This document shows positions 150 to 50,408 of a stretch of 64,000 nucleotides of DNA, in pieces. The position numbers and the translations under genes are program-made. Below the pieces are notes generated by a model. The model saw only the letters and a list, made by a program, of their open reading frames with translations, made no database searches and was not told the DNA's origin. Source of the stretch: Promethearchaeota archaeon (GTDB taxonomy: Archaea; Asgardarchaeota; Lokiarchaeia; Sigyniarchaeales; SOKP01). Numbering within the stretch: position 1 is the stretch's first letter; each line of letters opens with the position of its first letter. The DNA is taken from assembly GCA_030599585.1 (NCBI GenBank), contig JAUVNS010000014.1, forward strand, positions 1 to 64,000. Direction: 5' to 3'.

Positions 150-3100
150 TTATGAACCGATAGGAATTTTAACTATAAATGTAGAACCTTTCCCCTTCCC
201 TTCAGATTCAGCCCAGATCTCTCCTCCATGGAGTTTAATAATCTCTTTTGATAGAAATAGCCCTAAACCGGTACTACCTAAATCCATATCAAGATCTTTT
301 TTTAGTGGGGATTCTATAGTGCTAAATTTCTTGAAAAGATCTTTTATTTCTTCATTAGATAAACCCACCCCAGAATCACTTATTTTTACCTGAGCAAATT
401 TGCCATCAGACTGCATGTTTATTTGAATCTTACCGTTAGAAGGAGTGTATTTAATTGCATTTGATATTAGATTCGTAAATACAAGTTCAATACGGGATTC
501 ATCAATGTTCATATTGAGTTCAGGTAAGATATCAATATCTATTTCGTGATTCCGTTTATTGCTAAAATATTTCATTTCTTTGATGCAATTTATAATAATA
601 TTACTCAAGTTCGTTCGACTTTTATTTACTTTAAATGTCTTAGATTCCAATAAAGATATATCAAGTAGATCGTCAACTAATTTTTTAATTCTTTTGGTTC
701 CTATTGACGCCATTTCTAATAGTTCCAATTGTTCCGAATCGAACTTATCTTTATGTAATAAGTCTAACAATTGATACGCACCATAAACTGTAGTAATGGG
801 AGTCTTTAACTCATGTGAAGCCCTGTCAATGAATTCCTTTCTCATTTCATTTAACTCCGTTAATTTCACCTCTAATTCTTTTGTGTCTGATATATCATGA
901 CCCATTACCATAATATAAGTTTTATCACCCAATTTCACTAAAGATGAATTTATATCTACCCAAACGAGATCTCCATCCTTCTTCCTTAATTGAATATCGA
1001 TAGCGGGAATAATTTCGCCGTTAGCAATCTTTTTTAATCTCTCAAGAAGAAGAGGTAAATATTCAGTTGGGATAATAGGGAGTCTACCGTACCTCTTACC
1101 AATGAGTTCACTCCTCTCGTAGTTGAGTAATTTTTCTAAAGCAGGATTGCAATCTTCTATTTTACCTTTTTTGTTGATAAGCAAGATCGAAACCGGTGAT
1201 TTCTCAAAAAGGAATCGATATTTCTCCTCTGACTGTCGTAATTCCTCTTTAGCTTTCTTTTTTTCCGTTATATCTATATACGAAACTAGGAAAGCAGGCT
1301 TATTCTGGAACGTGATATGTTTATTGTAAATTTCTAACCATATAGTGCTCCCGTCCCTATGAATTCCACGAGCTTCATAATATTGAACATTGGTATCATC
1401 CTGATTTTCACTTTTTAAAGAGAACTCGATAATTTTTTTCTTATCCTCGTGATGAATCGTCTTAAAAAACTCTCCCTGACCCCAATTCAAAATTTCTTTG
1501 ATTGAATATCCAAGTATATGAGCAAGTGTTTTATTCACATATTTAACTCTATCTTCTTGGATTATAGAAATCCCCATTAAGGATTGTTCTGAAATTGTAC
1601 GGAATTGTTCTTCAGATTCTTTTATTCTCTCTTCAGCCTTTACCATTTCAGTAACATCGTGAATAATGCTTCTCATACCAATAATCGTAGTTCCTTTATA
1701 AATAGGAGTAACTTTTAAACTTCCATGAAAAATTGTTCCATCTTTTTTTTTTAATTGCATAATTAAAGGGTCGACAGTTTTACCCCTAAATATTAGGCTA
1801 AGGTTCCTTATAACTTCATCTCTATCTCGTTCGAGAATGAAATCAAACACATTTAATCCTTTTTTGAATTCTTCGTGAGAATATCCGAAAATTTTTGAAG
1901 CGATTGTGTTGGTATAGACTAATTTAAACTTTGAATCGATTTCAAAGATAACTTCTGGTAACGAGTTTGATAAATCTTTATATTTTTTTTCAGATTCAAT
2001 TAATTTTTGAGCAGCTTCCTTTCTTTCACTTATATCTCTTGAAATTGTAAGTATATAATTTTTCCCATCTGGATTTTTATAGGACTCAGCAGTTGTGTCC
2101 ATCCAAACATATTCACCGGTTTTTTTTCTAATTCTTACTTCAATTGATTTGTATTTCTCTTTTATTGCTTCAACGACTAATTCTCGATCTTCTGGATGGA
2201 CTAAATCTAATGAATTTTTACCAAAAAGATCCTCTGAAGAATATCCCATCAATCTTTTATGAGCTTTCTCGTTGATGTAATCTATTTTTAAGTGATTATC
2301 AACTACTGTTATTAAATCCATTGCATTTTCTGATAATAGTCTATACTTTTCTTCTGATTCCTTAATTTTTATTTGTGAATTTTTCAATTCTGTAATATCG
2401 TGTATAATACATCTTACTCCAGAGACTGAATTCTCCTTGAAGATACGACTTGCATGAATATATGCGAAAAATAACGTTCCATCTTTCCTCCTTAACCTTG
2501 TTTGTAAAGGCTTTACATATTCACCTCGGAAAATTAGTTTCGTCTGCTTCAATAGTAATTCTTTATCCTCAAGTGTTACGAAATCAAAAATAGTTATACC
2601 TTCCTTAAATTCTTGGGGTGTATATCCAAATACTTTGGAAGCTATCGAATTGGTATACGTTATAGTAAAACTCAAATCTATCTCAAAAATTACTTCCGGT
2701 AAAGAATCTGTTAGATTTCTGTATTTCTCTTCGGATTCTCTTAACTTTTTTTCTGCTTTTTTCCTATCTGTTATATCTTGGGCTATACCTTCTACTAAAA
2801 TCTCACCGTTAATTTTTTTAAGTGAATTTTGAACGCTAATCCAAGCGAAAGTTCCATCTTTTCTCTTAATCTTAATATCTTGTGGTTCTATCTTTTTTCC
2901 GGCTAAAGTTTCTTTATAATTATTTTTAAAAATCTCAAATTGCTCCGGAGCAAAAATTCCTAAATCGGTATATTTTTTACCGATCACTTCTCGTTTGGTG
3001 AATCCGAAAATCTTTTCTGTAGCAGAATTAACATTAAGAATAACCCCTTTACTATTAGTTACTGTGAGAGAATTTGGAGACGATTCATACAAAACACGAT

Positions 3101-3530
3101 ATCTTTTCTCTGACTCATTTACTTCTCGTTCTAAAATTTTACGCTGGTTGATATCCTGGGTTAAAACTTGAATATAACTTTTTTTATCAAGCTCAATTTT
3201 TGAAGCAGTAACATTAACCCAAATGAGAGTTTTATCTTTATTATGGATTTGAATATCCTCTGGACCAAAAATACCACCTGTCAGTAATTGATTAAATACC
3301 TTCTTCATTTGTATCTTGTTTGCTGCTGGAAGCATATACAAGTCTGAGAACTTAAAACCGATTAAGTCTTTTCTTTCAAATCCAAAAATATTTTCCGTAG
3401 CAGAGTTGATATCAACAATTTGACTATTTGAGTCAATTATAACAATTGAAATTGGAGTTTTATCAAAGAGCAATTTGTAATTGTCTTGCTGAGGTATTGA
3501 CTCAGTTGTTCTATAATTGGGGTGTGTCAA
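150..3530 (-). CDS. Cytoplasmic sensor histidine kinase with 7 PAS/PAC domains
   Basis: Repeated (E)SEEKYR...DIT/DIS units; HisKA ASHELKTP; HATPase NAIKY, DSGVG, GLGL; no TM segments. Confidence 0.95.
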   Translation of the reverse strand: MTHPNYRTTESIPQQDNYKLLFDKTPISIVIIDSNSQIVDINSATENIFGFERKDLIGFKFSDLYMLPAANKIQMKKVFNQLLTGGIFGPEDIQIHNKDKTLIWVNVTASKIELDKKSYIQVLTQDINQRKILEREVNESEKRYRVLYESSPNSLTVTNSKGVILNVNSATEKIFGFTKREVIGKKYTDLGIFAPEQFEIFKNNYKETLAGKKIEPQDIKIKRKDGTFAWISVQNSLKKINGEILVEGIAQDITDRKKAEKKLRESEEKYRNLTDSLPEVIFEIDLSFTITYTNSIASKVFGYTPQEFKEGITIFDFVTLEDKELLLKQTKLIFRGEYVKPLQTRLRRKDGTLFFAYIHASRIFKENSVSGVRCIIHDITELKNSQIKIKESEEKYRLLSENAMDLITVVDNHLKIDYINEKAHKRLMGYSSEDLFGKNSLDLVHPEDRELVVEAIKEKYKSIEVRIRKKTGEYVWMDTTAESYKNPDGKNYILTISRDISERKEAAQKLIESEKKYKDLSNSLPEVIFEIDSKFKLVYTNTIASKIFGYSHEEFKKGLNVFDFILERDRDEVIRNLSLIFRGKTVDPLIMQLKKKDGTIFHGSLKVTPIYKGTTIIGMRSIIHDVTEMVKAEERIKESEEQFRTISEQSLMGISIIQEDRVKYVNKTLAHILGYSIKEILNWGQGEFFKTIHHEDKKKIIEFSLKSENQDDTNVQYYEARGIHRDGSTIWLEIYNKHITFQNKPAFLVSYIDITEKKKAKEELRQSEEKYRFLFEKSPVSILLINKKGKIEDCNPALEKLLNYERSELIGKRYGRLPIIPTEYLPLLLERLKKIANGEIIPAIDIQLRKKDGDLVWVDINSSLVKLGDKTYIMVMGHDISDTKELEVKLTELNEMRKEFIDRASHELKTPITTVYGAYQLLDLLHKDKFDSEQLELLEMASIGTKRIKKLVDDLLDISLLESKTFKVNKSRTNLSNIIINCIKEMKYFSNKRNHEIDIDILPELNMNIDESRIELVFTNLISNAIKYTPSNGKIQINMQSDGKFAQVKISDSGVGLSNEEIKDLFKKFSTIESPLKKDLDMDLGSTGLGLFLSKEIIKLHGGEIWAESEGKGKGSTFIVKIPIGS

Positions 3531-3744: not shown

Positions 3745-5265
3745 TTAGGTATGTTCTCTGCGATACTGGGAATATTCATATAGAATTTTTAGGCATTTAG
3801 GTGGAGCATCCCAGAAGTCAAAAATAGGTAGATCATAAGACATGAATTTTTGATACCATGGAAACCTGTATGGAAACGGTCCAGAAAAATAAACAGGAAT
3901 AGAGTACTTCTTCATTAGTCTTCTAATCGGCCTTAAAATAGTTCGATCAAGCATTGATTCCATATTTTTCATATTCTCATCGATTTTCATTCCCGATCGT
4001 TCAATAGTTTCAATTACATCGTCGAAGTCAAATACGCCCCAAACAACAATGCTGTCCACTTCTCCCGACTTCATAAGCATTTTTGGAAATTTATAGAAAA
4101 TATTTAAGAAGTTAACATCAAAAGTAACATCAATAGGATTCTTAGCACTGGCAGTAAAAGGTATTAATTCCGATAGATCATCCTTTAGTTGTTTAGAAAA
4201 TTCTGGAACCTCCAATCCTAATAATTCTGATGATTTTGTCATCATTGAGCCACTTCCACCAGAATCAGTAATAATTCCTATTCTATTTCCTTTCATAAAC
4301 ACGTTGTATTTCTGAGCAAAGGATAATGTCCTCAAATAATATAGAAACTCTCTAATAGAATTAGTTGAAATTATACCCGCTTCTTTAAAAACGCCGTCAT
4401 AAATCTTTTGATCTCCCCCTAAAGAACCAGTATGGCTTTTAATAGATCTATTTGCTGCTTTAGTTCCTCCTGTGTATATAGCTACAATAGGTTTATTTGG
4501 GGTTATCTCCTTAATAATTTGTATAAATTCTTTGCCCCGCTTGATTTCCTCTATGTAAAGTCCAATAACGCCAGTGTAAGGATCGTCTTTGAAATATTCT
4601 AGGAAATCTACCATGTCGATATTTTTTTCATTTCCAACAGAAAGAGATTGACTAATATTTACGCCCATTTCTTTTGCGTGCCAAAAAGTTTGAGCGGCTA
4701 CTGTTCCAGATTGGCTTATAATAGAAATATTACCTTTTTTTGGAACAGCGTAAGGCCAAAAAGTGTTCATATAAGCATCTTCTTTTTCAGGAAACCTATA
4801 CCAAGCGTTATATATTCCCAGACAATTTGGACCAATAAACCTCATCTTATATTTTTTGGCAATCCTATCAATTTCTTGTGATAACAGCATACCATCTTTT
4901 CCAATTTCTCTAAATCCACCAGAAGTTATTAAGAGGTTTTTAATTCCCTTTTCTCCACATTCTTCCATAACTTGGGGAACTGCTCGGGTGGGTAATATAA
5001 GAAATGCAAGGTCAGGTGTAACAGGAAGCTCCATTACTGATTTATAAGCTTTAAAATCTTGAATTTTATCTAAGCGCGGATGAACGGGATAAATATCATC
5101 AACCCCACCTCCAGCTATGATATTTCGAAGCTGCATCGAACCCATCGTAGTTAGTAGGTTGTTATTTGCACCAAATATTGCGATGCTACGTGGATTAAGA
5201 AATCGATGTAAAAAGTGATCCTTGTTCAATTCTCTTTTATCGTTTTCAGTCAAGTTTGAACCCAA
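3745..5265 (-). CDS. ADP-forming acyl-CoA synthetase alpha-subunit family (CoA-binding protein)
   Basis: LNPRSIAIFGA, SGGFREIG, GPNCLG, SQSG, phospho-His SHTGSL, NPIDV. Confidence 0.9.
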   Translation of the reverse strand: MGSNLTENDKRELNKDHFLHRFLNPRSIAIFGANNNLLTTMGSMQLRNIIAGGGVDDIYPVHPRLDKIQDFKAYKSVMELPVTPDLAFLILPTRAVPQVMEECGEKGIKNLLITSGGFREIGKDGMLLSQEIDRIAKKYKMRFIGPNCLGIYNAWYRFPEKEDAYMNTFWPYAVPKKGNISIISQSGTVAAQTFWHAKEMGVNISQSLSVGNEKNIDMVDFLEYFKDDPYTGVIGLYIEEIKRGKEFIQIIKEITPNKPIVAIYTGGTKAANRSIKSHTGSLGGDQKIYDGVFKEAGIISTNSIREFLYYLRTLSFAQKYNVFMKGNRIGIITDSGGSGSMMTKSSELLGLEVPEFSKQLKDDLSELIPFTASAKNPIDVTFDVNFLNIFYKFPKMLMKSGEVDSIVVWGVFDFDDVIETIERSGMKIDENMKNMESMLDRTILRPIRRLMKKYSIPVYFSGPFPYRFPWYQKFMSYDLPIFDFWDAPPKCLKILYEYSQYRREHT

Positions 5266-44161: not shown

Positions 44162-45493
44162 TTATAAAAAATTATCCATCGTTCTCTGATTTTTAACGAA
44201 ATTAATAAGTTTACTACTTTGTTTCCAGTATTTGTAGCTTACCATGAACCCCTCTGCCATTTTTTTTGTTGAATCGTTAAAATTGTCAAGGATTAGAGGA
44301 TTTCCTTTCGCCATAGCATCTTTAATAGACTCTCTGATAACCCATACACCTAAGGGTACGATATAACCACCTTGTACTTCGCGAAAGATTAGAACTCTAG
44401 CTTGTCTACCAATTTTATATAAATACTCGCAAACCTCTTTTCGAGCCGCATAATAAGCACCAGTGATATTGCTCGCGTAATTCTTTCTGCCTTTGTAGAA
44501 CTCAAAATCGGTCATTATCTGAGGTTTTAAGCTACGATTATCTCCATCAAGAGAGATGTTCCATAAAGTATTAGGAGCCCATACCTCGTTCATCTCGTAA
44601 GTAAACTTGCCGGGAAAAAGTAGTATTTTAAAGTGATTATCTAGGTAAGTACTTTCAAATATACGATAATCGTTAATCTCAGGAAATTTTTTTATTTCTT
44701 TAATCAATGCTTTAGAGATAATATCATCGACTGCAGTTATACTCCATCGTGTGGGAACAATTCTACGCTTTGTTTTTTTACCCAATAACCCAGCTGAAAA
44801 AACTCTCTTAATTGTTGATTCTGGAACATGTCCTTTAAAGTAGAGATATTCTGACACCGCTTCAGTTGCATTTAAATCTGTATCGGAAACGACATAATCT
44901 ACTTTTGGGTGGATTTTAGTATTTTCTGTAATTCTTATCTTCTCAGTCGTTCCGGTAGGTCCCATAGGCAACGAGTGATTATCCATCATCATTCTAAGAC
45001 TCATTTTCTCCAACTTTGTTTCAGTATCTACAGGACGGGCTGCCATCGATAACTCCTGTGAGGTCTCCAGTAATCTTTGAATTTTTAAAGAAGGTGTGTT
45101 TTTACGACTCTTTTTTCCAATATTAACGTCGATTTTAAAATTATTACGCACTAAACTACTTCTATATTTGACGATTTCAAGTAAACTTTTGCCAAACCAC
45201 AATTCGGGAGCATCTAAAATGTGATAATCTGAAATGTTTAAGTCTATTTCGAATTCTTGAAAGGGAACTAGCGGACCGAGATATACTTTTGGATAATTAA
45301 AATGTCCAACGAAAAATCCAGGAGGGCTTGGTCCAGACAGTTCAACATTCCGAAGAGTTTTATCAAGCTCAAACGGAACTAAAGATTTCATAACAGACTT
45401 TTTTAATAAGATTGGGCATGTTTTTTTACCACATAGCAAACGTGAACCTTTACATCGCAAGCAGATATTTTTTTCTGTGGGAGGTCGAACCAA
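44162..45493 (-). CDS. nreA: Nre family archaeal DNA-repair protein
   Basis: CLRCKG..LLCG..CP, RIVPTRWSITAVD, GAYYAAR, PLGVW; C-terminal PIP box QRTMDNFL. Confidence 0.92.
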   Translation of the reverse strand: MVRPPTEKNICLRCKGSRLLCGKKTCPILLKKSVMKSLVPFELDKTLRNVELSGPSPPGFFVGHFNYPKVYLGPLVPFQEFEIDLNISDYHILDAPELWFGKSLLEIVKYRSSLVRNNFKIDVNIGKKSRKNTPSLKIQRLLETSQELSMAARPVDTETKLEKMSLRMMMDNHSLPMGPTGTTEKIRITENTKIHPKVDYVVSDTDLNATEAVSEYLYFKGHVPESTIKRVFSAGLLGKKTKRRIVPTRWSITAVDDIISKALIKEIKKFPEINDYRIFESTYLDNHFKILLFPGKFTYEMNEVWAPNTLWNISLDGDNRSLKPQIMTDFEFYKGRKNYASNITGAYYAARKEVCEYLYKIGRQARVLIFREVQGGYIVPLGVWVIRESIKDAMAKGNPLILDNFNDSTKKMAEGFMVSYKYWKQSSKLINFVKNQRTMDNFL

Positions 45494-45714
45494 TCTCGTG
45501 TCTCTTTAAAAATTATTATCTTTATTAGAAAATATCCTATTTATTATTAAAAAGGTAGACGAGTATAAATTTTTAATATTTATAAAAGAATTAGTATAAA
45601 TTTTTTATTGAGTGTACGTGTTGTTGATGTTCCATTTAAGATTTTTGGATGATTACTCAGTAAATATTCGAAGCGATAAAGCATAATTGGACGATGTATG
45701 CTGAGCATCAATTT

Positions 45715-45774
45715 ATATAGAATGCAATCTAATAAGAATAATATAGAATGCTGTCTAATTAGAGTTAGGTTTTG
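45715..45774 (+). repeat. 19-bp direct repeats (17/19, period 26) followed by a GTTRRRY core; attI-like site or tandem operator
   Basis: ATATAGAATGCAATCTAAT (45715-45733), ATATAGAATGCTGTCTAAT (45741-45759), GTTAGGT (45764-45770). Confidence 0.55.
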
Positions 45775-45796
45775 CAAAACTATTGGAGGAATACTT

Positions 45797-46768
45797 ATGA
45801 AAGCGATTGTATGGACAAAATACGGAGCTCCGGATGTTCTTCAGCTCCAAGAGATAGAAAAACCTACTCCCAAGGACAACGAAGTACTGATAAAAGTATT
45901 AGCGGCAACTGTAACCGCTGGGGATTGTGAAGTTCGAAGTTCCAAATTCCCTCTCTGGTTATGGATCATCATGCGATTATATATTGGTCTCAGAAAACCA
46001 AAAAGAATAACTATACTAGGGCAGGAGCTAGCCGGTAAAATTGAATCAGTAGGTAAAGATGTAACACTATTTAAGAAAGGTGACCAAATTTTTGCATCAC
46101 CATTTTTTGGTTCTTATGCTGAGTATATGTGTTTGCCTGAAGACGGGGTGTTGGCAATAAAACCGGCTAATATGACCTATGAGGAAGCCGCCACCGTTCC
46201 TACCGGGGGGTTTACTTCATTGCATTTTCTTAGAAAAGGAAATATCCAGAGCGGACAAAGGGTTTTGATTAACGGTGCAGGTGGAAGCATAGGTACTATT
46301 GGTGTACAGCTTGCCAAGTACTTTGGGGGTGAAGTGACTGCCGTGGATAGCACGATGAAATTGGACATGTTGCGCTCCATTGGTGCAGACAAGGTCATAG
46401 ATTACACTCAAGAAGATTTCACCAAAAACGGTGAGACCTATGATGTTATTTTTGACATAGTAGGTAAGAGTTCGTTTTCAGGTAGTATAAAATCACTAAA
46501 GAAAAAAGGATTTTATCTTATAGCTAACCCTACGCTGTCAAAGATGGTTCGAGGGAAATGGACTTCAATGATTAGCAGCAAGAAAGTAATAACTAAGATG
46601 GCAAAAGATAATATTGAAGATCTAAACTTTTTTAGAGAGCTTATTGAGGCGGGGAACCTAAAAACAGTCATAGATAGACGCTATCCGTTGGAACAAATTA
46701 TCGAGGCTCACAGCTATGTTGACACAGGGCAGAAAACGGGAAATGTAGTAATAACTTTTGGACTATAA
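45797..46768 (+). CDS. Zinc-free MDR-family NAD(P)-dependent oxidoreductase, copy 1
   Basis: [10 protein letters not shown] behind GGAGG; NGAGGSIG; GNVVIT. Confidence 0.93.
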
Positions 46769-46836
46769 TAACAAAATCTAACATTTTGGGACAATTTTTA
46801 AAAATTTGTATCAATCAAAAAAGGAAGGATAAATAA

Positions 46837-47814
46837 ATGAAAGCGATTGTATACACAAAATACGGATCACCGGATGTTCTTCAGCTCAAAGAGGTAGAAA
46901 AACCTACTCCGAAGGATAATGAAGTACTGGTAAAAATTCATGTAGCATCCTTAAATGCAGCTGACTTAGATTACATGAGAGGTAACGCCTTAATCCGCTT
47001 CGGAGGGCTTCGAAAGCCAAAATACAAGATACTCGGATCGGATGTAGCTGGACGGATTGAAGCAGTTGGCAAAAACGTAAAGCAATTTCAGCCGGGTGAT
47101 GAGATATTTGGGGACTCATTCGGTTGTGGTTTTGGCGCTTTTGCTGAGTGGGTATGTGTTCCTGAAAATAAATTAGCGCTGAAACCGGCCAGTATGACTT
47201 TCGAGGAAGTAGCGACATTACCCCAAGCAGGGTTACTCGCCCTGCAGGGTCTTCGCGATAAAAGACAGATTCAGCCGGGGCAAAAAGTTTTGATTAATGG
47301 TGCGGGTGGTGGTACGGGTTCTTTTGCTGTGCAGATTGCCAAATCATTCGGGGCTGAAGTGACTGGCGTGGACAGCAAGGCGAAATTGGATATGATGCGC
47401 TCAATAGGTGCTGACCATGTCATTGATTACACTCAAGAAGATTTCACTAAAAGTGGGCTGCGTTATGATCTGATTCTTGATGTTGTGGTATCTCGTTCGA
47501 TTTCTGATTATAAGCATGTTTTAAGTCCCAAGGGAATTCTTCGCATGGTCGGAGGTTCCATGGCTCGAGTTTTCAAAGCTGTGTTACTAGGACCGTTGAT
47601 TTCAAGGAGTAAGAAAATGAGTATTGTGGTGTGGAAATCAATGAAAAAAGAAGATTTGGTTTTTATGAAAGAGCTTTTTGAAGCCGGCAAAGTAGTACCT
47701 GTTATCGATAGGCGTTACCCGTTAAGTAAGGTTGCTGAAGCTCTCCGGTATCTTGAAGAAGGACACGTCCAAGGAAAAGTAGTCATAACTGTGGAAAATA
47801 ATAACATAGCCTAA
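46837..47814 (+). CDS. Zinc-free MDR-family oxidoreductase, copy 2
   Basis: MKAIVYTKYG; NGAGGGTG; GKVVIT; stop codon lies inside GCCTAAC. Confidence 0.93.
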   Translation: MKAIVYTKYGSPDVLQLKEVEKPTPKDNEVLVKIHVASLNAADLDYMRGNALIRFGGLRKPKYKILGSDVAGRIEAVGKNVKQFQPGDEIFGDSFGCGFGAFAEWVCVPENKLALKPASMTFEEVATLPQAGLLALQGLRDKRQIQPGQKVLINGAGGGTGSFAVQIAKSFGAEVTGVDSKAKLDMMRSIGADHVIDYTQEDFTKSGLRYDLILDVVVSRSISDYKHVLSPKGILRMVGGSMARVFKAVLLGPLISRSKKMSIVVWKSMKKEDLVFMKELFEAGKVVPVIDRRYPLSKVAEALRYLEEGHVQGKVVITVENNNIA

Positions 47815-47948
47815 CAAAGTAACTTTCCAGGACAATTTAAATAATAAAAAGAAATGGAAGAAAAAATGAAGACCATCGCATTAAGTTCTGAAGAGCAATA
47901 TAATGAATAATATTATTACCAAAAATAATTAATTATCATAGAAGTATT

Positions 47949-48833
47949 ATGGATGAAATTGACTTTATTATTCTTAAAAAACTAATAGAAAATTGTCGCG
48001 TGACATATAGAGAATTAGCGGAAATAATCGATATGTCCATAACAACAATTCATAAACGAATGAAAAGTCTTGTAGACGGTGGGATTATCAATGCTTTTAC
48101 TGCACGACCAAGCATAATAGCATTAAAAAGTCTGGTAGTTGTGATATTTGGCACTTCTAAAGCAAAATCATTGGAAGCTGTTAGTCAAGAGTTAGGGCAA
48201 CATGAGAGCATTATGGGTATTGGCATAGCGGGAGGAAAATTTCTCAGTATAGCTGCTTATTTAAGGAATATATCAGAACTTCAAGAATTTAGTAGTTATG
48301 TCTCAAATACGGGTCAGATCAGTGAGCCAATAATAGGAATAGTTAATGTACCTTACATGACAACACCAGAACCACTAACAACTATTGATTATAAAATTCT
48401 AAAGAGTTTGAATAGAGATGCAAGGAAAACGATAATAGATATTGCTGAAGATGTAGGAGTCTCTGCTAAAACTATTAGAAAACGATTAGGTCGAATGATT
48501 GAGAATAATCTAGCTGAATTTAGCATTGAATGGACACCTTTGTATAAAAATTGTTTTATAACAATTTTTCATCTATTTTTAAACGAAGGAACTAATATTA
48601 ATTCTACAATTCAGCATCTTAACGAGAAATACTCTCAGAATATTTCTTATTGCACTAGCTATAGTAATATTCCACACTTTATTTCAATGGACACATGGGG
48701 AAAAAATCCTCAAGACTTCCAGAAAATTCATGAAGAGCTGCAAACCGAAGGATTCAAAGATATCATTCCATATATAGTTCACTCAGTAAAGTATTTTGAT
48801 TGTTGGGTAGATCAATTACTTAGAACTAAATGA
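47949..48833 (+). CDS. Lrp/AsnC-type regulator with duplicated HTH-RAM units
   Basis: MDEIDFIILKKL..NCRVTYRELA and TTIDYKILKSLNRDARKT..DIA. Confidence 0.9.
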   Translation: MDEIDFIILKKLIENCRVTYRELAEIIDMSITTIHKRMKSLVDGGIINAFTARPSIIALKSLVVVIFGTSKAKSLEAVSQELGQHESIMGIGIAGGKFLSIAAYLRNISELQEFSSYVSNTGQISEPIIGIVNVPYMTTPEPLTTIDYKILKSLNRDARKTIIDIAEDVGVSAKTIRKRLGRMIENNLAEFSIEWTPLYKNCFITIFHLFLNEGTNINSTIQHLNEKYSQNISYCTSYSNIPHFISMDTWGKNPQDFQKIHEELQTEGFKDIIPYIVHSVKYFDCWVDQLLRTK

Positions 48834-49110
48834 AAGAATAGTTTTTTATATTCCAAAATTTAACCTAAATCACTAAAATTTTGATACTTTTAGTTCCCAA
48901 ATTTTACCTTAGAATAGAAAAATTTAGAGTTTTTTGAGATTTTAGATTGTTTTTAATCTTAAGATTTTATGATAAAATACCTTTTCCTTCAATTTAATGA
49001 CTATAAGCTTCCATAGTTAATTTTTTTAATTATTTAGTAAACATGGTTTTATTAGAGTTTTAATCGGTATTAAATTTAATAATAAAAAATATTTAAAAAG
49101 GTGATAAAAA

Positions 49111-50046
49111 GTGAAAGCAATGGTATATACAAAATACGGGGGTCCGGAGGTTTTTCATCTCAAGGAGGTAGAAAAACCTACTCCCAAGGAAAATGAAATA
49201 CTGGTAAAAGTATATGCGACAACAGTAAATGCAGCGGTGAAGAATAGTCGAAGAGGTATACACCCAGATTCCAAATTTTTTACTCTCGCGTTGCGATTAA
49301 TGATGGGTCTCAGAAAGCCAAGAAAACCTATACTAGGGTATGAGCTAGCCGGGGAAATTGAAGCAGTAGGCAAAGATGTAAAACTATTTAAGAAAGGGGA
49401 CCAAGTTTTTGGTAGTACCACCGGGTTGAAGAATGGTGCTTATGCTGAGTACGTATGTCTGCCAGAAGAATGGAAGCAAGGGATGGTGGCAATAAAACCG
49501 GTCAATATGACCTTTGAGGAGGCCGCTGCTGTTAGTACTGGAGCAACTACAGCGTTGTGCTTTCTTAGAAAAGGAAATATCCAGAGCGGACAAAAAGTTC
49601 TTATCTATGGAGCTTCTGGAAGTAATGGTACTTTTGCGGTACAGCTTGCCAAGTACTTTGGGGCAGAAGTTACCGGAGTATGCAGTACCACAAATTTAGA
49701 ATTAGTTAAATCTTTGGGAGCCGATAATGTAATTGACTACACCAAAGAGGATTTTGCAGAAAGAGGAGAGCTTTATGATCTCATTTTTGATGCCGTTGGA
49801 AAAAGCTCAGCTTCACATTGTAAGAAGGCATTAGCTCCGAACGGGAAATTCGTAACAGTTAAAAAAGGATACTTTAAGGAAACGAATGAGCTTTTAATTT
49901 TTCTAAGAGAGCTTATTGAGGAGGGAAAGCTAAAATCGGCCATAGATAGGAGCTATCCCTTGGAACAAATGGTCGAAGCTCATACCTACGTTGATAAAGG
50001 GCACAAAAAGGGAAATGTAGTAATTACAATAGAGGGCGTGGTATAA
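49111..50046 (+). CDS. Zinc-free MDR-family oxidoreductase, copy 3
   Basis: GTG start behind AGGTGA; YGASGSNG; [10 protein letters not shown]. Confidence 0.93.
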
Positions 50047-50048
50047 GT

Positions 50049-50408
50049 ATGGACGATGTGAAGGTAATACTTTCATTCATATGGGTAGCTTTAATGTTAT
50101 GTTTTTTGTTAGGTGATGTGATGCGAATATTTGCTGGAGATTTTGAACCAGGAAAATTAGAAGGTAAACCAATGTCTCAGAAAGTGTACTTGGGATTATC
50201 AATAATGATGGTGATTCCGATTCTTATGGTTGTCCTGACCCTGACATTGGATTATCCTATTAATAGCTGGGTAAACATCATCGTAGCCATTATCTTTTTT
50301 GGTTTTAATCTCATTGGAATGAGGGGTATGAAGATTTATGATAAATTTTTGATCATTGTAAGTCTTGGGTTTAATGTACTGACTGTTTGGTATGCATTTA
50401 CTTGGTGA
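50049..50408 (+). CDS. Small 4-TM membrane protein, DUF6326-like
   Basis: LS..W..LML..L.GDV, IPILMVVL, N.WVNI; 2-nt gap from MDR copy 3. Confidence 0.7.
   Translation: MDDVKVILSFIWVALMLCFLLGDVMRIFAGDFEPGKLEGKPMSQKVYLGLSIMMVIPILMVVLTLTLDYPINSWVNIIVAIIFFGFNLIGMRGMKIYDKFLIIVSLGFNVLTVWYAFTW

Follow-up and report, generated by a model that had tools for sequence, protein, structure and literature searches.

How two oxidoreductase genes in the chromosome of an Asgard archaeon come to be edged by motifs of integron gene cassettes is the question raised by positions 45,715–47,886 of the window, by which we mean the whole 64,000-nucleotide stretch of DNA analysed here. It opens contig C1 of a metagenome-assembled genome (MAG) from Promethearchaeia, 4.85 Mb in 52 contigs with 32.6% GC; its relatives bear the labels Promethearchaeia or Promethearchaeota, both Asgard archaea. 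Both genes encode quinone-oxidoreductase-like medium-chain dehydrogenases/reductases (MDRs; the abbreviation does not stand for multidrug resistance). The genome under study is G000, and 42 genomes of its genus were compared; other G numbers are genomes, C numbers contigs and L numbers comparison loci or contigs. We consider it likely that positions 45764–47886 are an immobilised remnant of integron gene cassettes encoding such MDRs, now placed under an archaeal promoter with a putative operator. A preliminary description of this DNA had proposed fixed cassettes with decayed attC sites behind an attI site. It was right in part: comparison with intact, attC-flanked homologues supports the fixed cassettes, while the attI interpretation is probably wrong.

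The first gene, MDR1 (45797–46768, 323 amino acids; plus strand, as are all window features below unless stated), and the second, MDR2 (46837–47814, 325 amino acids), were assigned using Pfam and a tree, with NCBIfam and a comparison of tails in addition for MDR1. FastTree divided 126 MDR proteins into two well-supported clades, with MDR1 and a third window gene, MDR3, in clade I and MDR2 in clade II; archaeal and bacterial sequences are intermixed on short branches. MDR2 is only 50% identical to MDR1, against about 70% to Chloroflexota homologues. All three proteins contain ADH_N (GroES-like) and ADH_zinc_N_2 (Rossmann) domains, with Pfam E-values of 1e-12 to 1e-26, and are by definition quinone-oxidoreductase-like MDRs. 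They share this architecture with the PIG3-like enzymes (TIGR02824; NCBI name 'NAD(P)-dependent alcohol dehydrogenase'), which are their best NCBIfam match, but their scores of 160–178 bits are well under the cut-off of 296.8 and do not place them in that family.

The cassette origin is most directly seen at the 5′ end. The leader of MDR1 starts with G|TTAGGTTTTGC, which is the exact 5′ boundary of an MDR cassette family in 17 unrelated contigs outside the genus. These 17 copies have GTTAGGTTTTGC... in common and unrelated DNA upstream of the G: the information content is 0.20 bit per column upstream of the boundary and 1.42 downstream, a measure that carries no bias from the search pattern. 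One contig (L058) starts exactly at the boundary G of GTTAGGT, and in L131 the same G is the final base of an attC. The 12-mer GTTAGGTTTTGC occurs once in the 4.85-Mb genome and, unlike the bare core GTTRRRY, is not to be put down to chance. This is the arrangement that cassette descent would leave, with TTRRRY just after what would be the crossover G and homology beginning there.

In the window, the cassette 5′ end and a shortened leader occupy 45764–45799, where G|TTAGGTTTTGCAAAACT (45764–45781) is joined to ATTGGAGGAATACTTATG (45782–45799), with a Shine–Dalgarno sequence GGAGG at 45786–45790. According to alignment A1 and the boundary analysis, about 55 nt of a canonical 83-nt leader have been deleted and both ends kept, namely GTTAGGTTTTGCAAA and GGAGGAATACTTATG. 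In the same alignment, Dehalococcoidia, deltaproteobacteria and Neomarinimicrobiota share the leader of about 83 nt, and an actinobacterial copy does so less completely. A cassette in the bacterial MAG locus L059 starts with catcGTTAGGTTTTGCAgc and ends its leader with GGAATACTTATGAAAGCGATTGT, and the same words are found at 45764–45810 of the window. Other parts of the leader are retained behind an identical junction, TCTAATTAGA|GTTA, at the paralogue C45:3840 and in a gene-less relic in G005. A scan of metagenomes for GTTRGGTTTTKCAAACTT gave 80 loci, and in 13 of them the motif lies 31–83 nt (mostly 83) before an MDR start codon.

We note that the 83-nt leader spans many bacterial phyla and is more conserved than the proteins, which are 45–70% identical to each other (L192:5149–5237, L168:13744–13832 on the minus strand, L191:90–178 and 13 others; alignment A3). 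A role as a structured RNA was considered and rejected: RNAalifold gave −1.56 kcal/mol with no compensatory pair, no covarying structure or Rfam family was found for the leader, and Rfam returned no relevant family for the locus or for six cassette contigs. The leader probably acts at the DNA level, as a regulatory element or promoter carried along with the cassette.

The preliminary description had asked whether the nearest MDR homologues sit in intact cassettes, and four loci (L131, L187, L059 and L056) do carry complete attC sites after the same tail. In L131, an unmistakable cassette array, ORFs of one orientation are followed in turn by four attC hairpins, at 922–1018, 2052–2121, 2938–3058 and 3397–3486, and the MDR cassette has an attC on both sides. 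In L187, two consecutive MDR cassettes are separated by a 75-nt attC (−22.8 kcal/mol) and the 83-nt leader, and this pair is the intact counterpart of MDR1–MDR2. L056 has a 98-nt attC. L059 was flagged when our attC detector was run on 80 loci encoding MDR2 relatives: its MDR stops inside ACCTAAC and is followed by a 76/131-nt hairpin ending in GTTAGGT, in a region that also contains a small-ORF cassette and an intI (integron integrase) fragment, within a host genome rich in IntI matches. The MDR cassette of L059 lies between a Gabija-like pair (an OLD-family TOPRIM ATPase and a UvrD helicase) and a BrnT/BrnA toxin–antitoxin pair (L059:50–2606 and 4583–5118), neighbours that are typical cargo of a chromosomal integron or a defence island. 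Leader, tail and attC are present in both MDR clades.

The ends of the genes are consistent with this origin. The family tail AACAAAACCTAAC (..NNKT* plus C), which occurs in both clades, reads as the start of the leader in reverse complement, and once a cassette is circular, tail and leader start would pair as the base of its attC stem; this explains the inverted match, recognised in the preliminary description, between GTTAGGTTTTG (45764–45774) and CAAAATCTAAC (46772–46782), which are reverse complements at 10 of 11 positions. The relic 3′ end of the first cassette (46772–46800) would consist of an R″ core ATCTAAC (46776–46782) within the extended stem CAAAATCTAAC, and a left-arm remnant ...GGACAATTT (46789–46797); it has neither an R′ partner nor a hairpin. 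MDR1 stops before this core on account of a +1 T frameshift in the TTTT at 46756–46759, which truncates the ancestral ...LDYNNKI* tail. When one T is removed, as had been proposed, VVITFGL* becomes VVITLDYNNKI* and ends inside ATCTAAC. The frameshift is real and old; the orthologue in G002 carries the same TTTT and ends in ITFGS*. Other MDR paralogues end in ITLDHI* or VITVEHNNKI* with AACAAAATCTAAC.

MDR2 ends in VITVENNNIA*, and its stop codon TAA (47812–47814) falls within GCCTAAC (47809–47815), as previously reported. A putative decayed attC of the second cassette runs from this R″ to 47886 through AAAGTAACTTTCCA and GGACAATTTAAAT, with a possible degenerate R′, ATTAAGT (47880–47886), 78 nt after the R″; the stretch is conserved in the G004 orthologue and folds no better than shuffles. 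The xxCTAAC stops appear from these comparisons to be R″ cores, and GGACAATTT and AAAGCG... the left-arm remnants of attC sites. The attC upstream of the MDR cassette in L131 reads R″-N13-GGACAATTTAAAG, and the window reads R″-N14-GGACAATTTAAAT after MDR2 and R″-N6-GGACAATTT after MDR1, a likeness that accounts for the earlier finding of GGACAATTT after both cores (46789–46797 and 47830–47838). As a candidate common terminator or repeat, GGACAATTT was rejected: its 85 occurrences in the genome compare with about 62 expected, and a CTAAC stop precedes the two window copies alone. A longer, GC-rich arm of 18 nt, AAAGCGTTGCACCCGACC, follows ATCTAAC in G018:C288, which has a perfect operator and a leaderless start; 15 of its 18 positions agree with the attC arm of L131, and it is similar to L056 and L059 too. 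Both window genes would on this evidence have ended in or next to an R″ core RYYYAAC, as cassette ORFs do, with only left-arm remnants of attC kept. We also tentatively identify 46805–46836, GTATCAATCAAAAAAGGAAGGATAAATAA, as the probable 3′ leader remnant of the next cassette, since the last 30 nt or so of the 68-nt MDR1–MDR2 spacer resemble the canonical ..GCATCAAAGTAATTTTGGAGGAATACTC when aligned with the L187 tandem cassettes (alignment A5).

Upstream of the cassette boundary the DNA is of a different character. A TATA box TTTATATA (45712–45719) begins the first of two promoter units; the first 19-bp repeat, ATATAGAATGCAATCTAAT (45715–45733), contains the dyad TAGAATGCAATCTA (45718–45731), a 13/14 match to the palindrome TAGAATGCATTCTA. 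The second, ATATAGAATGCTGTCTAAT (45741–45759), contains a TATA-like ATATA and the dyad TAGAATGCTGTCTA (45744–45757), and ends in GTCTAAT (45753–45759), after which come TAGA and GTTAGGT (45764–45770). The repeats are 26 bp apart and identical at 17 of 19 positions, and their dyads deviate from the 14-bp palindrome at one and two positions; G004:C2 and G018:C288 have TAGAATGCATTCTA in perfect form as their core. We read each 26-bp unit as a probable archaeal TATA box plus a putative 14-bp operator, duplicated in the window.

The pattern ATA[TG][AG]GAATG-N3-TCTAAT has four perfect matches in the genome and none in shuffles. Two are those in the window and the others precede C45:33768 and C45:3840, so that all are upstream of MDR genes. 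Across the genus, 6 of the 42 genomes contain perfect copies, 11 in total (a reversed control pattern gave three matches), and every one directly precedes an MKAIV...TKYG MDR start codon. Five of them have the ATG 8–10 nt past TCTAAT and about 32 nt from the TATA box, in agreement with the CATCAATTTATAT context found 32–33 nt before the ATG of leaderless MDR paralogues, a geometry that appears to be that of leaderless archaeal mRNA and suits an archaeal TATA box, which stands about 25–30 nt before the transcription start. The element is 89–97% identical between species and the flanking genes 72–86%, and it occurs on several MDR paralogue lineages, in this genus only. Two further occurrences may be mentioned: in L099 (G034:C18, around 1501–1600) the element is followed first by a truncated MKAIVYQSM... 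stub and then by a DUF6326 gene, and in L010 (G005:C87, 2999–3140) a double element and cassette start have no MDR gene behind them.

In archaea, the operators of Lrp/AsnC, TrmB and MDR1-type regulators overlap or follow the TATA box. The window resembles such repressor operators in having a dyad-symmetric site of 13–15 bp straight after the TATA box, and an Lrp/AsnC-type gene nearby; it differs in that this neighbour is an unusual fusion of two helix–turn–helix (HTH) domains whose presence does not track the operator. The neighbour (47949–48833, 294 amino acids, two HTH_AsnC domains according to Pfam and NCBIfam) is a candidate for a protein that would bind the dyads. It was rejected as the established regulator and remains a candidate because its co-occurrence with the operator across the genus is poor. 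About 80 nt directly 3′ of double-AsnC paralogues (..ttcccaaatttcaactaaatggaaaatattgtggtacttttcgttccacaatat..) are conserved, downstream of 28094 and of 24668 on G000:C45, with a diverged copy at 48834–49110 of the window.

The preliminary description had correctly located the 19-bp direct repeats and GTCTAAT-N4-GTTAGGT, and had taken them as the repeats and the L and R boxes of an attI. On that reading they would be what is left of the attI of a chromosomal Asgard integron that has died out, the repeats being integrase-binding sites with an archaeal cassette promoter and MDR1–MDR2 the start of the array, and several observations are in its favour. The repeats sit exactly 5′ of the cassette crossover point; RYYYAAT-N4-GTTRRRY formally fits the definition of attI as two inverted boxes separated by 4–5 bp (PMC12614218), and the crossover would be at G|TT; both repeats close with a near-core [A/G]TCTAAT; within the genus, the genome G053 combines an intI above cut-off with an attC; and Asgard archaea are enriched in integrons (PMC9668308). 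In attI1 of the class 1 integron In2 on R100, two direct repeats likewise precede an L/R pair in inverted arrangement, and the crossover is at G|TT. However, the attI1 repeats are core-like 7-mers, oriented like R and beside intI1, whereas those of the window are 19-mers with a TATA box and a 14-bp palindrome, beside nreA, whose core-like words are oriented like L and which recur at other promoters. None of the 11 element copies adjoins an intI (the neighbours being nreA, a PAS histidine kinase and others), and the element is under present-day constraint in genomes that have none. It stands before nine other MDR genes of the genus without R box, cassette leader or integrase, so that the supposed L box belongs to the element at nine loci lacking an R box, and in five cases it is at leaderless-promoter distance from the start codon. 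A perfect 14-bp palindrome fused to a TATA box suits a transcription-factor operator. Because the repeats carry TATA box and dyad and recur without R box, leader and integrase, we regard the attI reading as unlikely. It is similarly improbable that the duplicated units were an archaeal attI with its own TATA-type cassette promoter, a native Asgard platform co-opted after loss of the integrase and copied around the genome with MDR cassettes. The preliminary description had named two findings that together would tell against cassettes, and these have come apart: the homologues do associate with attC and intI, and the repeats do appear to act as a promoter/operator with TATA box and 14-bp dyad.

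Fixed cassettes, as distinct from a working integron, are also what the searches for integron machinery indicate. As had been noticed in the window, intI and complete attC hairpins are lacking. Genome-wide, the best match to TIGR02249, the model of the integron integrase (a tyrosine recombinase with the IntI-specific domain), reaches 48 bits where the cut-off is 265; the only recombinases of related type are two Xer-like proteins, on C31 and C32, so that no integrase adjoins an array in this genome, as it would in a complete integron. Searching strictly for attC (RYYYAAC, 40–150 nt, GTTRRRY, folding) gave 906 pairs in the genome, about the chance number, none of them clustered and none at the locus. 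The strict search missed an attC with non-canonical cores in G053, and a relaxed version was used. The detector recovered three positive controls, the aadA1 attC of R100 In2 (60 nt, −18.3 kcal/mol) and, when relaxed, sites on G053:C116 and G054:C35. It detected no R″..R′ pair in the 42–52 kb part of the window, nor did sites cluster anywhere in the genome, and the relaxed scan found nothing at 45–48 kb. Intergenic folds at the locus have z-scores of −1.1 to +0.4 relative to shuffles.

Among the 42 genus genomes, only G053 passes the TIGR02249 cut-off. Its match of 276 bits, in two pieces about 290 nt apart, is on a 2.6-kb contig of 36.6% GC (L124, G053:C116:1–2603), which also holds a 124-nt attC hairpin with the non-canonical cores TTCTAAC...GTTAGCC. 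The contig could be native or bin contamination. The presence of intI and attC there makes integron activity in this lineage plausible.

A more radical alternative is that no integron was ever involved: an MDR operon with a conserved regulatory leader would have come by ordinary horizontal transfer or be ancient, GTTAGGT and CTAAC being coding or regulatory look-alikes. GTTRRRY is indeed at chance frequency in the window (120 against 122.8 expected), about 120 of 126 homologues have no attC, and tandem MDR genes that lack attC are common both in Chloroflexota, where their spacers are of about 20 nt, and in other Promethearchaeota. The leader also outdoes the proteins in conservation, and therefore probably has a function of its own. 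This explanation is nevertheless improbable, since in 17 independent contexts the homology breaks precisely at G|TT, where recombination takes place, leader start and tail end are 10–12-nt inverted repeats suited to the base of an attC stem, GC-rich attC arm remnants persist in a genus of 32% GC, and L187 provides an intact tandem-cassette counterpart. The interleaved tree, together with the attC-less tandem genes, suggests that the MDR family has been fixed many times and that the tail may now be kept as coding sequence.

That the cassettes are still mobilisable, as a cryptic cluster of attC sites lacking an integrase (CALIN) with odd AT-rich attCs excisable by an integrase in trans, is very improbable: CALINs are the commonest integron form in archaeal MAGs (PMC9668308), archaeal attCs are diverse and that of G053 evaded the strict search, but the relaxed search that recovered it found nothing here, folds are no better than shuffles, the plus strand has no GTTRRRY within more than 900 nt after either RYYYAAC, the 68-nt spacer is too short for attC plus leader, and the locus does not hold the at least two attC sites, with hairpins of about 55–150 nt and within 4 kb, of a CALIN.

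Several points weigh against domesticated cassettes as well. Since neither attC hairpin nor intI is found in the genome, the case for descent rests on comparison and not on a functional site, and the attC detector was our own heuristic (core pairs 40–150 nt apart, with folding of the DNA) and not IntegronFinder. The relics around MDR2 are short and AT-rich, with scores of only 12/16 and similar; the leader 3′ remnant and the possible R′ are weak. Just upstream of GTTAGGT in L053, L023 and L059, candidate attC sequences fold no better than shuffles, and only L131 shows an attC there. The NNKT* tail is on every gene of tandem MDR operons with spacers of about 20 nt in the Chloroflexota loci L023 and L024, and so could be coding sequence of long standing that does not in every case represent a live R″. 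Promoter and operator functions were assigned from the DNA sequence, and three of the six operator-bearing genomes (G002, G018 and G034) have no close double-AsnC orthologue.

Taking domesticated cassettes as the preferred explanation, we propose the following history. In an ancestor of the genus, the G|TT of ...GTCTAATTAGAG|TTAGGT would have received an MDR cassette through the action of an integron integrase. This cassette would have consisted of TTAGGTTTTGC, the 83-nt leader, an ORF ending ..NNK[TI]*, R″ xxCTAAC and an attC hairpin, and its target would have been an attI or an attI-like genomic 'attG' site beside an archaeal promoter. The data fit insertion of the attG type beside a promoter equally well. 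The integrase was presumably lost later and the attC hairpins removed by deletions, which would leave the 5′ boundary and both leader ends before MDR1, R″ in both stop regions and about 20 nt of attC left arm per gene. Today the genes would be ordinary chromosomal genes transcribed, as anatomy and conservation suggest, from a duplicated archaeal core promoter, with the dyad positioned where a dimeric winged-helix regulator would block recruitment of RNA polymerase by TBP/TFB. Further MDR paralogues of the genus may have come to carry the promoter-plus-gene unit as it spread, and several of these would have lost the leader and become leaderless.

Such insertion at attI-like genomic sites beside promoters is a known route in bacteria according to Loot et al. 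(2024), as cited in PMC12614218, and IntI is active off-target at secondary sites (PMC10127599). In those cases, as described there, a single cassette is likewise joined at G|TT to non-integron DNA by a host promoter and then effectively fixed. They are bacterial and experimental, whereas the window is archaeal and its history would be deduced from the junction alone, where an attG target is inseparable from a degenerate attI. The cassettes and CALINs described in archaea by Ghaly et al. (2022, Sci Adv, PMC9668308) share with the window the Asgard host group, the G|TTRRRY start, the stop in R″, the attC anatomy, the lack of an adjacent integrase and the occurrence of the same cassette type in bacteria and archaea. 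They differ in that the window has lost its attC hairpins, and so would not be called a CALIN, and in that its cassette is fused to an archaeal TATA/operator promoter and its family has grown to eight paralogues. A text search through PMC9668308, supplements included, turned up no quinone-oxidoreductase or zinc-dehydrogenase cassette. An NADPH-oxidoreductase class 1 cassette of enterobacterial plasmids (Ghaly et al.) was considered as the same enzyme and rejected: in a tblastn search of MDR2 against 72,556 plasmids all matches were below 60% identity and came from Bacillales, haloarchaea, cyanobacteria and others, with no enterobacterial integron among them, and that cassette is therefore probably a different enzyme.

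On the left of the locus is nreA (44162–45493, minus strand; archaeal Nre_N and Nre_C domains in Pfam), the left neighbour conserved in synteny, which marks the chromosome as archaeal. Gene content to the right of nreA differs among relatives, and the 'empty site' that the preliminary description had suggested looking for was not found in clean form: G013 and G011 have flavodoxin-like genes there, and in G005 the comparison of nreA sites gave a promoter and cassette-start relic without an MDR gene. On the right, MDR3 (49111–50046) and an overlapping gene for a DUF6326 membrane protein (together 49111–50408; Pfam, tree) belong to the same gene-family island and have no cassette signature.

The first 99 nt of MDR1 (45797–45895) and MDR2 (46837–46935) are 90% identical, far above the 50% of the proteins overall, and the bacterial cassette L059 shares this start at about 93%. 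Gene conversion or an unusual nucleotide-level constraint could be responsible; recombination within these 99 nt would explain how G016 has lost MDR1 and has the promoter fused to MDR2. The genome has eight MDR paralogues and five of the double-AsnC regulator, mostly on C45, where a second one-strand island (L109, G000:C45:18001–36000) contains four MDR paralogues, three double-AsnC regulators, two DUF4386 membrane proteins, a GNAT protein, an ABC-2 transporter pair and a PAS histidine kinase. MDR and DUF4386 genes are adjacent also in the Chloroflexota locus L056. The paralogue at G000:C20:258951–259826 has an in-frame stop after 114 codons with the rest still alignable, and is likely to be a pseudogene.

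Not until 2022 were integrons reported from Archaea, for the most part in the form of attC clusters on fragmentary MAGs, and the earlier case for transfer between domains was based on recombination assays and shared attC types. The present locus is a new example of a known phenomenon. Its value is that it would be traceable: a single cassette family, recognisable by its distinctive 83-nt leader and tail, can be followed in mobile and domesticated states across both prokaryotic domains. The family is mobile with intact attC in some contigs, including a tandem MDR pair, and has decayed or absent attC in the chromosomes of Chloroflexota and other bacteria; in this Asgard genus it would be fixed, under an archaeal promoter, and expanded to a gene family. 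The locus would illustrate the state of a cassette once it has been domesticated by an archaeon, and its leader, tail and attC arm may serve as sequence markers for further relics, which searches based on attC or intI would miss.

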